Position numbers and translations under genes: made by a program. A stretch of DNA of 64,000 bases from an uncultured Chloroflexia bacterium (GTDB taxonomy: Bacteria; Chloroflexota; Limnocylindria; Limnocylindrales; CSP1-4): the NCBI GenBank assembly GCA_963828165.1, contig CAWHDR010000005.1, forward strand, positions 128,001-192,000. The letters are read 5' to 3'. Of the stretch, positions 1-3,217 are shown piece by piece. The notes beneath the pieces were generated by a model. That model ran no database searches. It saw only the letters and a list, made by a program, of their open reading frames with translations, and was not told the DNA's origin. Position 1 is the stretch's first letter. Each line of letters begins with the position of its first letter.

Positions 1-28
1 AACTAGAAGCCCGATCCTCGCTCGCCAT
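1..28 (-). CDS. 5' end of a gene coupled to efp, truncated by the window edge (MASEDRASS...)
   Basis: ATG at 28-26 overlaps the efp stop (TGATG) and the frame is open to the edge. Too short to identify. Confidence 0.35.
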
Positions 29-585
29 CAGAGCCGCGTCTGGTACTCCCCGGTCCGCGTGTCGACGCGGATGGTGTCCCCGGGCTCGACGAAGATCGGG
101 ACCTGGACGACGAGGCCGGTCTCGGTCGTGGCGGGCTTCCGAGCCCCGGACTGGGTGTCACCGGCGAAGCCCGGTTCCGTCTCGACCACCGCGAGATCAA
201 CCGTCACCGGCACCTCGACCCCGATCGTCTCGCCCTGGTAGCTCGTGCGATCAAGCGTCATGCCGTCCTTGAGGTACTGCGCCGTCTCGCCCAGCTGATC
301 GGCGGTGAGGATGAACTGGTCGTACGTGTCGTTGTCCATGAAGTGGTAGTCGCGGTCGTCGCGGTAGAGGAACTGGACCGGCCGCTTCTCCATCGACGCA
401 CGTGGCCACTTCGTCCCGGCCTGGAACGATCGCTCCACGGTCTGGCCGCGCTTGATGTTGCGCAGGGTGATGCGGACTTGCGCCGACCCTCGGCCCATCT
501 TGATGTGGTGGTAGTCGAGGATCTGCCAGAGCTCGCCGTCGAGCTCGATGGCGACGCCCTTCTTGAGTTCGCCGGTACTGATCAT
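28..585 (-). CDS. efp: Elongation factor P
   Basis: 185 aa with KOW/OB layout, KPATTETGLVVQVPIFV...IRVDTRTGEY C-terminal signature, tip loop KMGRG, AGGAG SD upstream. Confidence 0.97.
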   Translation of the reverse strand: MISTGELKKGVAIELDGELWQILDYHHIKMGRGSAQVRITLRNIKRGQTVERSFQAGTKWPRASMEKRPVQFLYRDDRDYHFMDNDTYDQFILTADQLGETAQYLKDGMTLDRTSYQGETIGVEVPVTVDLAVVETEPGFAGDTQSGARKPATTETGLVVQVPIFVEPGDTIRVDTRTGEYQTRL

Positions 586-653
586 GTGGTGGTGGGCTCC
601 TGGGGTCAGACCGCCGGGGCACGCGGCGACGGGGCCGGGGGTGGTCGGGGTCG

Positions 654-672
654 AGCCGACATTCTAGCCGAC
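654..672 (-). promoter_or_regulatory. Probable efp -10 box (TAGAAT) flanked by GTCGGCT direct repeats
   Basis: The minus strand reads GTCGGC-TAGAAT-GTCGGCT about 75 nt upstream of the efp ATG. Confidence 0.5.
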
Positions 673-753
673 GGCCGCGGCCCGCTCGGGCAGCGCCATC
701 AGCCGCCCCCGGCGTCGGCCCACATGACCGTCACACTCTCCCGGCCATCGACC

Positions 754-984
754 TCACCCGCGATCCCGGATCAGGGAGCGCAGCCGGACCTCGTACTCGG
801 CCGTGTCGATCTCCCCGCGCGCCAGCCGGCCCTTGAGCTCCGACACTGCGGGATCCTCGCGGGGCGCACTGTTTCGACGGATCGCCCAGACGATGAGCCC
901 GACCACGAGACCCGTGATGACCAGCGGGATCAGCAGGGTCGCCGCCATGAGCGGCATGAACCAGTCGAAGATCCCGACGTCCAC
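754..984 (-). CDS. Small membrane protein with C-terminal SHOCT domain
   Basis: GTG start after GAGGGG; one hydrophobic segment then AVSELKGRLARGEIDTAEYE, a typical SHOCT motif. Confidence 0.8.
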   Translation of the reverse strand: MDVGIFDWFMPLMAATLLIPLVITGLVVGLIVWAIRRNSAPREDPAVSELKGRLARGEIDTAEYEVRLRSLIRDRG

Positions 985-1060
985 GGCCTTCACCCCTCGT
1001 TTCGCGACGCAAGCGCAGCCGGCATCATCGCACGCTGGAGTCGCCATCCACGACATCCCC

Positions 1061-1069
1061 TGCTAGCAT
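1061..1069 (+). promoter_or_regulatory. Extended -10 promoter (TGcTAGCAT)
   Basis: TGn-TAnnnT about 160 nt upstream of the ATG at 1229. Confidence 0.55.
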
Positions 1070-1075
1070 CCGACT

Positions 1076-1222
1076 CGGCGTTCCTCACGCCACACCTCCG
1101 ACCCGGCGCCCACGCCGCCGGCCCGTGGAGGCAAAGGGGCTCCGCCTCGGGGTCGTCGGACCGTGTGCCACGATCGATGGCTCGGGAGCGTGGGTCCTGG
1201 GGTCGTTGGTCGGAACGAGGAG
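1076..1222 (+). ncRNA. Candidate structured 5' leader RNA
   Basis: Pairings GGCGT(1077-81)/ACGCC(1087-91), CCCACGC(1109-15)/GCGTGGG(1188-94), TCCGACC(1097-1103)/GGTCGGA(1208-14) and GAGGC/GCCTC. No known family recognised. Confidence 0.45.
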
Positions 1223-1228
1223 CACACG

Positions 1229-1963
1229 ATGACGACCGACAAGGCGCGCAAGCGCGCCGTTCGCACCCGGATGACCAAGACCGGCGAGCGCTATGCCGCT
1301 GCCCGGCGACACGTCGTCGCGGACGAGGGGCCAGCCACCCCGCCACCCCTCCCGACGCTTCCGCCGCGCGTGGCCGATCCAGGCATGACCGAGGCCGCCA
1401 TCGCGACCGGCACCGGAGCGGGCTGGGACCACTGGTTCGGTCTGCTCGACGGCTGGGGCGGTGCCGAACGCTCGCACACGGACATCGCGCGGTTCATCCG
1501 CGAGGAGCAGGGCGTGAGCGGCTGGTGGGCGCAGGCGGTGACCGTCGGCTACGAACGGGCTCGCGGGCTGCGCGCGATGCATCAGACCAAGCGCGGCTTC
1601 GAGGTGAGCGTCTCCAAGACCGTGGCCGCGCCACCGGCGGACGTCTGGGCCGCGTTCCTGGAGCCCCGAGGCCGCCGCCGCTGGATCGAAGCGGGCACGC
1701 TCGGCAGGCGGCGGACGACCTTTGCCATCGGCCGCTCGACGTCGTTCGCCGGCCCCGACGGAACGCGGGTCGCCGTGGCGATCGACCCTCGCGGGGATGA
1801 CCGCGCGACCGTGACGGTCACGCACGAAGGGCTCGCGGATGCCGGGGATGTCGCGAGACGACGCGCCGCCTGGCGAGACTCGTTGGGCCGGCTCGCGGCG
1901 CTCTACGGAGACCGCTCGGCCCCGAAACAGCCGGCCAGTCGCACGAAACGGTCGGCGCCGTAG
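1229..1963 (+). CDS. Protein with basic N-terminal motif, DUF4287-like domain and SRPBCC-like C-terminal domain
   Basis: GAGGAG SD; MTTDKARKRAVRTRMTKTGERYAAARR, then ATG..WDHWF.LLD..G...H..IA......GVSGWWAQAVTVGYER, then VSKTVAAPPADVWAAF...VTVTHEGL. Confidence 0.8.
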   Translation: MTTDKARKRAVRTRMTKTGERYAAARRHVVADEGPATPPPLPTLPPRVADPGMTEAAIATGTGAGWDHWFGLLDGWGGAERSHTDIARFIREEQGVSGWWAQAVTVGYERARGLRAMHQTKRGFEVSVSKTVAAPPADVWAAFLEPRGRRRWIEAGTLGRRRTTFAIGRSTSFAGPDGTRVAVAIDPRGDDRATVTVTHEGLADAGDVARRRAAWRDSLGRLAALYGDRSAPKQPASRTKRSAP

Positions 1964-1984
1964 CGGACTGCGTGGTCGGGGCCG

Positions 1985-3217
1985 TCAGCCGGCTCCGACC
2001 ACCGTGACCTCGCTCGGGAACCGGGTCAGCCGCTCGACGCGGCCGGCCGGAGCATCGATGGCGATGAGGTCCTCGATGCGGACGCCCATCTGGCCATCGA
2101 GATAGACCCCGGGCTCGACGGAGAAGACCGTCGGGCTCGGGAGGGGTGTCTCCGCGGCGGCCTTCCCGAGTGACGGGGCTTCGTGGGTGGCGAGACCGAT
2201 GCCGTGCCCGGTGCTGTGGCCGAAGTGGTCGCCGTGTCCGCCTTTGTCGATGACCGCACGGGCGATCGCGTCCACGGCCCGGCCGCTGGGTATCTCCCCT
2301 CCTCCGCGCACGGCCTCATCGACCGCGCTGATCGCCGCCGCCTGGGCGCTGGCGACGAGCTCGTAGATCTCCAGATCCCGCGCCACCGGATCGCCCACGA
2401 ACAACGTGCGCGTCATGTCACTCCGGTACCCCTCGACCTGCGCCCCGAAGTCGAAGAGGAGCACCGAACGGTCCAGGACCGGTCGGTCGCCGGGGGCACC
2501 GTGGGGCAGGGCCGCTTCCGCACCTGACAGGCAGGCGACGTCGAACGCGAGCGCCTCCGCCCCACCGGTACGCATGTGCCATTCCAGCCGGAGCGCGAGC
2601 TCCGCCTCGGTCACGCCCGCACGGATCTCCGGCAGGAGCGCCGCGAGGGCCCGGTCGGCGACCGCACACGCCGCCGCGACGCGTTCCAGCTCGGCGGGCT
2701 CCTTGACCGCTCGATCGGCCTCGATCCAGCCCTCGACCGGGACGAGCTCGATGTCCGGCGCCGCGGCGGCCAGGCGCTCCCACGCCGCATGCGACACGAA
2801 CCCGGCCTCGACGCCGACCCGGCGAGCGCCGACGGACCGCACGATCTCGAGCCAGCGTTCGGGCAGGTTGCCGTAGGCCTCGAACAGGCGCGTGTCCGGG
2901 GCCTCGCGCCGGGCCTGGATCGTGTAGCGCGAATCGGCGAGGATCACGACCTCCTCACCCGAGACGAGGAACTGCCCGGAGTTCCCGGCGGACTTCTCCT
3001 CGCCCTCCGCGAGCGTGAACCCCGTCAGGTAGCGCATGTGCTCGCGCCGGACCCCGAAGTAGGCGTCGATGCCGGCGTCGGCGAACCTCGCGCGGAGGCG
3101 GCCGAGTCGAGCCGGGCGCGCCACACGATCGGACTCGGACCAGGCCTCCCGCTGCGCCGTGCCGGGTGGCGCGGCGAAATCCTCGGGGCGGGGCGACGCG
3201 CCCCGCGTCGCCCTCAT
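1985..3217 (-). CDS. Xaa-Pro aminopeptidase (M24B, creatinase N-domain)
   Basis: DFGAQVEGYRSDMTRT, HSTGHGIGLATHEAP and SVEPGVY...GVRIED motifs. The ATG at 3217 overlaps the mltG stop; the ORF-track extension to 3880 is spurious. Confidence 0.93.
   Translation of the reverse strand: MRATRGASPRPEDFAAPPGTAQREAWSESDRVARPARLGRLRARFADAGIDAYFGVRREHMRYLTGFTLAEGEEKSAGNSGQFLVSGEEVVILADSRYTIQARREAPDTRLFEAYGNLPERWLEIVRSVGARRVGVEAGFVSHAAWERLAAAAPDIELVPVEGWIEADRAVKEPAELERVAAACAVADRALAALLPEIRAGVTEAELALRLEWHMRTGGAEALAFDVACLSGAEAALPHGAPGDRPVLDRSVLLFDFGAQVEGYRSDMTRTLFVGDPVARDLEIYELVASAQAAAISAVDEAVRGGGEIPSGRAVDAIARAVIDKGGHGDHFGHSTGHGIGLATHEAPSLGKAAAETPLPSPTVFSVEPGVYLDGQMGVRIEDLIAIDAPAGRVERLTRFPSEVTVVGAG

Follow-up and report, generated by a model that had tools for sequence, protein, structure and literature searches.

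We identified a conserved cassette, a structured 5' leader RNA followed directly by a short basic peptide, in the genome of an uncultured Chloroflexia bacterium. The sequence analyzed, here called the window, is a stretch of 64,000 nucleotides (nt) from contig CAWHDR010000005.1 (positions 128,001 to 192,000, forward strand), and its positions 1076-1237 are one copy of the RNA, which is about 150 nt long. The peptide forms the N-terminus of the 244-amino-acid (aa) product of a coding sequence (CDS) at 1229-1963 (+), with an ATG start codon at 1229 and the stop codon at 1961-1963. RNA and peptide are coupled one to one, on unrelated proteins and in distant phyla, and the cassette matches no entry in Rfam, Pfam, NCBIfam or the Protein Data Bank (PDB). 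We have very little doubt that the cassette is real, and it is likely that the leader acts on translation initiation. The fuller proposal, that positions 1061-1324 are one copy of a widespread translational-control cassette in which the leader holds initiation low and the peptide is its partner, appears to us evenly balanced.

Structure of the leader RNA

Taken singly, the helices first noted in the window leader could be products of chance in DNA of 71% G+C. The evidence for structure is comparative, not thermodynamic. We judged the leader to be real after a second copy in the same genome was found to align with it block by block. A motif scan of this genome had placed the same peptide on one other gene (C1:326903). 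The second cassette (C1:326718-328259) lies downstream of a DUF3090 gene and encodes a 451-aa BtrH_N and DUF4872 protein that is unrelated to the window protein beyond residue 30 or so. A stop codon is found directly 5' of its ATG.

A covariance model (R1) was built from 24 leaders of the same genus with five nested helices and without a pseudoknot. To test the fold, 59 diverse leaders, of which 58 are distinct, were aligned with the model and scored at 31 base pairs, including a long-range helix. Across the 58 distinct leaders 96.0% of the pairs are formed compared with 82.4% in shuffles, 23 of the 31 pairs show compensatory changes (13.6 in shuffles), and the covariation score is 0.398 (0.136 in shuffles); none of 500 shuffles reaches any of these values. 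When partners are slid by 1-3 columns as a control, pairing falls to 32-58% (maximum 57.7%). Covariation establishes the leader fold, and this is the conserved, covarying structure 5' of motif-bearing genes that the earlier note on this DNA had anticipated.

The best-supported helix is the long-range pairing of CCCACGC (1109-1115) with GCGTGGG (1188-1194), which had been pointed out in the earlier note along with a 5' hairpin (P1, also recovered), yet it is absent from the aligning model. It is a pseudoknot between two loops, L3 and L6, and its pairs are formed in 98.8% of cases. Variants of L3:L6 include CUCACGC:GCGUGAG, CCUGCGC:GCGCAGG, CCCCAGC:GCUGGGG, CCCGUCC:GGACGGG, CUCGCGC:GCGCGAG and UCCACGC:GCGUGGA. 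The P1 and P4 stems are conserved in sequence, not merely in pairing. The 3' domain varies in register from one lineage to another, and for this reason RNAalifold on a MAFFT alignment and column-wise helix scans retrieved the fold incompletely; per-sequence tests were used instead.

Alternative folds around 1097-1104 had also been suggested. This segment is complementary to both 1200-1205 and 1208-1214 in the window, but the pairing is not conserved: cognate combinations reach -14.2 kcal/mol and non-cognate ones -14.0 kcal/mol (permutation p 0.27). In the same comparison, run on the kissing loops as a positive control, 57 of 58 leaders show a cognate advantage.

The features of the cassette and of the protein in the window are as follows.

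1061-1069 (+): -10 element TAGCAT (1064-1069) with TGC before it, from the sequence; TANNNT in 50 of 58 leaders
1077-1091 (+): P1 hairpin GGCGU/ACGCC, 95.2% paired, sequence nearly invariant, at or a few nt from the probable transcript start
1095-1099 (+): 5' strand of P2, CCUCC, pairs with 1127-1131; 97.2% paired, 4/5 pairs compensated
1103-1121 (+): P3 hairpin CCGGCG/CGCCGG with the 7-nt loop L3 (CCCACGC, 1109-1115), 6/6 pairs compensated
1127-1131 (+): 3' strand of P2, GGAGG, pairs with 1095-1099
1130-1139 (+): conserved GGCAAAGGGG; AAAGGGG is invariant in the 24 same-genus leaders and conserved in other phyla too
1136-1148 (+): P4 hairpin GGGGC-UCC-GCCUC with a conserved G-U pair, 99.3% paired, 21 compensatory cells at the apical pair
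1151-1237 (+): 3' domain, a long irregular hairpin, from constrained folds of 59 leaders (mean z -2.08)
1188-1194 (+): L6, apical loop GCGUGGG, kisses L3; 6/7 pairs compensated
1217-1222 (+): Shine-Dalgarno-like GAGGAG, 6 nt 5' of the AUG, from the sequence; a purine-rich block is at the same place in relatives
1229-1324 (+): codons 1-32 including the start codon, Lys/Arg-rich helical hairpin MTTDKARKRAVRTRMTKTGERYAAARRHVVAD, from profile search, AlphaFold2 and codon-position entropy
1325-1390 (+): Pro/Ala-rich linker, residues 33-54, without secondary structure; the predicted local distance difference test score (pLDDT) dips to 57
1391-1561 (+): four-helix DUF4287-like part, residues 55-111, from Pfam (14.1 bits) and AlphaFold2 helices
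1586-1918 (+): SRPBCC/AHSA1-like domain, residues 120-230, from Pfam AHSA1 (26.8 bits) and Foldseek

Coupling of RNA and peptide

A search of 61 related genomes with a 34-aa peptide gave 30 loci in 18 genomes, all of the same genus. The motif pattern found the gene in 28 of the 30 loci, and in all 28 the start codon (27 ATG, 1 GTG) lies exactly 11 residues before R.RM. Upstream of these loci the sequences follow a conspicuous common pattern. In the genome of the window R1 has exactly two strong matches, both of 155 bits (the third scores 17 bits), and these are at the two peptide genes.

Scanning one genome per species gave at least 413 confirmed peptide places, the best 80 of which were examined for the RNA. 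These best 80 are labelled as Chloroflexota (including Limnocylindria, to which the window seems to belong), Acidobacteriota, Gemmatimonadota, Planctomycetota, Myxococcota, a Proteobacteria metagenome-assembled genome (MAG), and Actinomycetota (Lentzea, Planobispora, Planomonospora, Nocardiopsis, Actinokineospora, Thermoleophilia and others), and R1 matches all 80 of them, in at least seven phyla by label, on the plus strand and ending at ATG+9. The E-value is below 1e-8 in 78 cases; one of the remaining two is cut by a contig end (1.6e-5) and the other is weak (L091, 0.02). Plus-strand scores range from 41 to 173 bits, and minus-strand matches at the same places do not exceed 24 bits. Conservation across phyla reaches down to 51% G+C. 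Two loci labelled Heliomicrobium sp. (L086 and L099) have cassettes nearly identical to the copy in a Blastocatellia MAG (L081), and the label looks doubtful.

Whole genomes allow the coupling to be examined in both directions. Among 151 Chloroflexota genomes (at least 80% complete) there are six RNA places in five genomes, the two described above included, and all six end 8-9 nt inside the peptide start. In five actinomycete genomes (6-10.8 Mb) the nine strong RNA matches are the places of the nine peptide matches; two further partial RNA matches of 25 bits are probably noise. Every strong RNA match in the whole genomes searched (15/15) precedes a peptide gene and, conversely, 95 of 96 peptide genes have the full RNA (80/80; 9/9; 6/7 in the Chloroflexota sample), so that the leader consistently stands before the gene of the proposed binder, as an autogenous leader would. 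The earlier note's view of leader and basic peptide as one portable unit is borne out by these counts.

The exception, L122 (1420-1600), has only the -10 box, P1 and a P2-like helix, and the GGAGG of P2 lies 9 nt before the ATG, in the position of a ribosome-binding site. Its peptide has S5 and E17 at positions where K is otherwise near-invariant, a decay correlated with the truncated leader. In a viral collection the cassette was found on only two contigs (372-407 kb), giving no phage link.

The N-terminal peptide

The consensus of the peptide directly 3' of the RNA is MTTxKxFKxRVRxRMxKTGExYxxAR. A profile made from 14 peptides was searched against 1.84 billion proteins and matched 3,516 cluster representatives at E <=0.001, and 450 at E <=1e-10. 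The match begins at residue 1 in 128 of 150 among the matches listed; in the other 22 of these the usual M-T/P-T start lies inside an over-long gene call. Several over-long calls translate the leader AAAGGGG as K-G. A class of over-long calls in public protein sets is thereby explained as translated leader RNA, a systematic annotation error for the family. Public calls P0125, P0134, P0142, P0162, P0167, P0168, P0184, P0203, P0264 and P0267 start 38-86 residues early and translate the leader RNA. A mechanical list of open reading frames (ORFs) gives the window gene a GTG start at 1163 (1163-1963, 266 aa); comparison places the start at ATG 1229.

The peptide is under selection at the amino-acid level. 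Over 100 distinct coding starts the mean entropy at codon positions 1/2/3 is 0.72/0.44/1.10. Residues K5, K8, V11, A25 and R26, which are outside the pattern used for selection, are 97-100% conserved with free third positions; R12, R14, M15, T18, G19, E20 and Y22 are near-invariant too, partly through the selection pattern. Because the residues are held constant and third codon positions are free to change, we regard the peptide as a selected protein module.

In an AlphaFold2 model of the window protein (63 sequences, mean pLDDT 88), residues 3-18 and 22-32 are helical, residues 33-54 form a linker of low confidence, and four further helices (55-111) precede an SRPBCC fold. The peptide itself is predicted to be a compact two-helix hairpin with a small hydrophobic core (the conserved V11, M15, Y22 and A25), followed by the linker. 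A ribbon-helix-helix fold was considered for the peptide and dropped; the model has a helix from residue 3 and no strand, and there is no Pfam match. The SRPBCC part matches AHSA1/START-like structures in Foldseek (2le1, 1z94, YndB-like chains; E 1.7e-5), and the protein scores above the gathering cut-off for AHSA1 (PF08327; 26.8 bits against 22.1). For DUF4287 (PF14117) it remains below the cut-off (14.1 bits against 27), and relatives with the same architecture score 28.0-31.4 bits, above it; "DUF4287-like" is a fair label for residues 55-111. The layout described in the earlier note, a basic N-terminal helical segment, a linker, and DUF4287-like and SRPBCC-like parts, is thus correct, with DUF4287 below the Pfam cut-off here.

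Searches for the peptide gave no match in Pfam (residues 1-40, E <=1), nothing in NCBIfam (for either the peptide or the window protein), one chance match in the PDB by sequence (E 9.7) and, in the ESM Atlas (residues 1-33), a best score of 0.79 to an unnamed cluster. A direct homology search with residues 1-40 returned 34 candidates and three matches, and the profile search was used instead. For the RNA, Rfam 15 gave only a 17-bit chance match at 846-888, outside the leader, when window positions 600-2100 were searched at E <=10. With 12 diverse loci at E <=1 there was no sense-strand match and one match of 23 bits to a miRNA model (E 0.92) on the opposite strand of L024. The covariance-model check proposed earlier therefore found no described family in either the window or the 12 diverse copies. 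Literature queries for DUF4287 or SRPBCC with riboswitch, for DUF4872 and for peptide strings gave nothing relevant, nor did a broad query on autoregulation; supplementary motif lists lie outside these searches and could bear on novelty. A term search of PMC11109978 and PMC8632094 gave no occurrence of SRPBCC, BtrH or nitrilase.

Transcript start and initiation region

The intergenic stretch 5' of the CDS is 172 nt long and contains TGCTAGCAT at 1061-1069, which the earlier note had read as an extended -10 element. A -10-like box is present at a fixed place: a TANNNT hexamer ends 6-10 nt 5' of P1 in 50 of 58 distinct leaders, compared with 7.5% in shuffles. The extension is a different matter, as TGn precedes the hexamer in only three of the 50 leaders with the box. 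Generic scans of the window leader for sigma-70 promoters and for terminators found nothing. Given the position of the box relative to P1, the first nucleotide of the RNA is probably that of P1 or one slightly upstream, near 1076.

Contigs from four soil metatranscriptomes, which are 85-95% alike and come from relatives, cover 1064-1330. Contigs from two metatranscriptome studies start at about 1077-1085, a weak hint of a start near P1, and another contig extends further upstream; such contigs cannot prove a transcript start, and stretches without coverage are uninformative. The share of the words of the window stretch in public runs is small (0.04-0.14; 0.04-0.06 in RNA runs).

The start codon is buried in the predicted structure. 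When L6 is constrained to be unpaired, every 3' domain among the 59 leaders folds as one long irregular hairpin, at whose base the stretch that follows P4 is paired to the spacer, the start codon and the opening codons. Segment 1151-1158 of the window is paired to 1230-1237 (the U and G of the start codon and codons 2-3), and 1162-1168 to 1222-1228 (the spacer 5' of the AUG). Compared with shuffles, 43 of 57 3' domains have z-scores below -1 and 29 of 57 below -2. The predicted accessibility of the initiation region is lowered: the unpaired probability at -12 to +6 is 0.31, against 0.47 with shuffled upstream sequence, and it is lower in 52 of 53 leaders. Cognate duplexes of the anti-start and start segments beat swapped ones (p 0.001). 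GGUCAC stands opposite GUG starts in four of five cases and GGUCAU opposite AUG in four of five, small numbers with many kin sequences. The 5' arm alone has a mean z of -0.12, and therefore no conserved competing hairpin is seen in it.

Carrier proteins and plasmids

Four or more unrelated protein architectures follow the RNA and peptide, and the window's genome has two of these. Carriers include DUF4287-SRPBCC, BtrH_N-DUF4872, C-N hydrolase, WD40 and GerE proteins. In 58 longer representatives we found 21 with BtrH_N, nine with DUF4872, eight with DUF4287 and one each with GerE, AHSA1 and WD40, and simple motifs place 46 of 109 distinct carriers in a DUF4287-like class and 44 in a BtrH-like class. 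The statement in the earlier note that the N-terminal motif occurs on otherwise unrelated proteins was accurate. Its suggestion that the SRPBCC domain is the ligand sensor of the switch did not hold: BtrH_N-DUF4872 carriers are equally common, C-N hydrolase carriers are without SRPBCC, and since most carriers of other architectures have no such domain it cannot be the general sensor. The DUF4287-SRPBCC and BtrH_N-DUF4872 carriers often occur in the same genome at unlinked places (in this genome and six others noted), and the two families may work together.

Searching plasmids with tblastn revealed C-N hydrolase carriers on Sinorhizobium, Rhizobium, Phyllobacterium, Microvirga and Streptomyces plasmids. 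R1 scores 38.8 bits for the S. meliloti copy and 22.6 bits for the Streptomyces copy. Besides S. meliloti plasmid pB (NZ_CP141214.1), 27 plasmid records contain the cassette, and the rhizobial plasmids are mostly conjugative. Leader and peptide DNA of the rhizobial copy is 71.6% identical to that of the Streptomyces plasmid copy, an identity that suggests transfer of the cassette between phyla. Genes of the GNAT, GrpB and dihydrofolate reductase (DHFR) families are neighbours of the plasmid C-N hydrolase copies.

Genomic context in the window

The window gene is flanked by a divergent neighbour on the minus strand, a small SHOCT-domain gene (754-1056) next to efp (28-585, -), and by a convergent downstream neighbour, an M24 Xaa-Pro peptidase gene (pepP), on the minus strand from 1985. 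The product of 754-1056 (-) is a small predicted membrane protein whose C-terminal SHOCT-like match (22.7 bits) is below the cut-off, and its true start is uncertain; relatives retain the SHOCT gene between pepP and efp.

Leader and CDS together take up about 930 nt within a pepP-(SHOCT)-efp row (28-3100) that is otherwise conserved and lies on the other strand. The cassette gene looks inserted into this row, because four of five relatives that lack the gene have pepP next to efp on one strand, sometimes with the SHOCT gene between them, and such an insertion would fit with the copies on conjugative plasmids elsewhere. The gene does break the usual adjacency of the Xaa-Pro peptidase gene and efp, as the earlier note had it. 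The efp/pepP setting of the cassette gene is common to only three other genomes.

Proposed function of the cassette

In order, the cassette consists of the -10 box, P1, P2 enclosing P3, GGCAAAGGGG, P4, the long 3' hairpin and about 30 codons. The base of the 3' hairpin is predicted to hide the start codon and codons 2-3, its apical loop kisses the loop of P3, and the leader would keep initiation low by default. The peptide may then bind the leader, either in cis during its own synthesis, on leaving the ribosome, or in trans as part of completed proteins, and the carriers would thereby set their own, and one another's, synthesis. The linker, predicted to be disordered, joins the two-helix hairpin to whatever protein comes next. 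We favour a direct link between peptide and RNA because of their strict one-to-one coupling, the fixed N-terminal position of the peptide and the sequence conservation of P1 and P4; that the peptide is the direct partner of the RNA seems to us a little short of an even chance. A more specific version, a portable ribonucleoprotein cassette in which the emerging Arg/Lys hairpin of about 30 residues clamps the kissing-loop leader and gates further initiation, is put forward tentatively.

There are precedents for parts of this arrangement. In phage lambda the arginine-rich-motif peptide of the N protein binds the boxB hairpin, and N represses its own translation at nutL. The proposed pair has similar elements, a short basic helix right at the start of the protein and a putative hairpin target in the leader of its message. 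However, no sequence likeness was found in the libraries searched (Pfam, PDB and NCBIfam), the RNA is about 150 nt long with a pseudoknot and not a single small hairpin, and the cassette is on cellular genes and plasmids without a context of antitermination. The encapsulation peptides of microcompartments are portable N-terminal tags on flexible linkers. They likewise are short helical units joined by a poorly conserved linker to unrelated enzymes, whereas the cassette peptide is strongly basic and always has a specific structured RNA upstream.

Several observations weigh against a control cassette in which peptide and RNA are partners. Folding the window leader alone, on both strands, gives results no better than shuffles (z -0.92, with 37 of 200 dinucleotide shuffles as good). 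The alignment was fitted to most of the tested helices (the five of the model), and the E-values of the model are rough. The best 80 of at least 413 loci leave out weaker peptides and include many close kin that are not independent, and one of the seven peptide genes in the phylum sample (L122) is without the full leader. The peptide is similar to no known RNA-binding family in Pfam, PDB, NCBIfam or the ESM Atlas. The RNA alone is predicted to be closed, so that a repressing partner is not obviously needed and an activating signal fits equally. Finally, as the carrier families co-occur, a shared regulon and a targeting tag would suffice without contact between RNA and peptide.

The last two points lead to another explanation, in which the leader is a riboswitch or other sensor (of a small molecule, an ion, temperature or a separate trans factor) whose response exposes the buried start codon. 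The peptide would then be an unconnected tag, for targeting or for binding nucleic acid, common to proteins that act together, and the two would stay together through adjacency and one regulon, not through contact. We consider this possible but on the unlikely side. The conserved junction GGCAAAGGGG, the pseudoknot and the buried initiation region give the leader a riboswitch-like architecture, closed without any partner, and covariation of the 31-pair fold does reveal a structured element in the 5' leader such as an aptamer would be. The two main carrier families are also commonly in one genome at unlinked places. SAM-II and preQ1-II are translational riboswitches with pseudoknots; like the cassette they have their leader where the transcript starts and keep the initiation region buried. 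In contrast to these, the cassette RNA has no Rfam match, no coherent metabolic gene set and no mutually exclusive structures: neither the 5' arm (z -0.12) nor the candidate alternative pairing provides a conserved alternative. Ordinary riboswitches also control untagged genes and operons, whereas all 15 RNA matches precede peptide genes with a converse of 95 in 96, and being tied so strictly to a protein motif is not characteristic of riboswitches. The carrier proteins have no common pathway that would name a ligand, and the conservation of P1 and P4 in sequence, not just in pairing, likewise argues against a sensor with an unconnected tag.

The same coupling could reflect substrate mimicry in the manner of ribosomal proteins, where carriers would be anchored by the peptide to a cellular RNA (rRNA, tRNA or another), the leader would be a copy of the anchoring site, and protein in excess would silence its own mRNA. 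In favour of this, the peptide forms basic helices, and thiol-amidase-like carriers (BtrH_N, C-N hydrolase) might act on an RNA-linked substrate. Autogenous ribosomal-protein leaders include the rpsF leader bound by S6:S18 (PMC3895269) and those of S15, L1 and L20. Such leaders likewise are structured, stand directly 5' of the gene of a binder (here a proposed one), involve the initiation region and are widely conserved across phyla with covariation. Here, however, binding is proposed for a module of 30 N-terminal residues attached to unrelated proteins, not for a whole dedicated RNA-binding protein, and no mimicked cellular RNA was found: blastn-short of the leader against the whole genome gave no match to another RNA gene, although structural mimicry is not covered by a sequence search. 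The kissing-loop sequence, moreover, varies freely between lineages, unlike a copy of a universally conserved rRNA site. Mimicry of this kind is improbable. A 21-nt exact match to leader positions 1139-1159 at C1:202412-202432, at the start of the CDS of a Gfo/Idh/MocA-like oxidoreductase, was judged a coincidence. A likeness of the kissing helix to the helix-24 stem of 16S rRNA was dropped, as short chance matches are expected and the loops covary freely.

Still less probable is control by the nascent chain, in which the first 30 residues would pause or arrest in or at the exit tunnel and the fold of the leader would read the pause, with no free complex of peptide and RNA. The peptide invariably opens the protein and comes immediately 3' of the RNA (from residue 1 in 128 of the 150 listed; the rest look over-long), and the linker of about 20 residues comes after it. 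However, a compact two-helix hairpin with a hydrophobic core, as predicted, suggests a folded surface module and not a tunnel-bound segment, and known arrest peptides lie in separate upstream reading frames. That nothing here is functional, the fold being chance complementarity in GC-rich DNA or the leader an N-terminal extension of the CDS, can practically be dismissed: the single-sequence fold is indeed unremarkable and the ORF from 1163 is open, but the leader covaries and is conserved across phyla down to 51% G+C, a stop codon immediately precedes the ATG in the paralogous copy, and the start is fixed relative to R.RM in 28 of 28 loci.

With this work the structured leader RNAs of bacteria gain a large class that has good support and was found in neither Rfam 15 nor the papers searched. 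Known leader RNAs go with whole genes or pathways; this one is tied one to one to an undescribed protein motif. If peptide and RNA are not partners, the RNA would be an orphan sensor marking a hidden regulon of DUF4287-SRPBCC, BtrH_N-DUF4872 and C-N hydrolase proteins. If they are, the cassette would be a transferable autoregulatory device of interest to both gene control and synthetic biology. Cultured carriers exist in Sinorhizobium meliloti and Rhizobium leguminosarum (on plasmids), Lentzea, Nocardiopsis and Streptomyces (on plasmids), and the question is directly testable in them. Should the emerging peptide indeed gate initiation through the leader, any gene acquiring the leader and 30 codons would inherit autogenous, possibly collective, dosage control, and the cassette would represent a new kind of modular gene-regulation device present in at least seven phyla and on conjugative plasmids.

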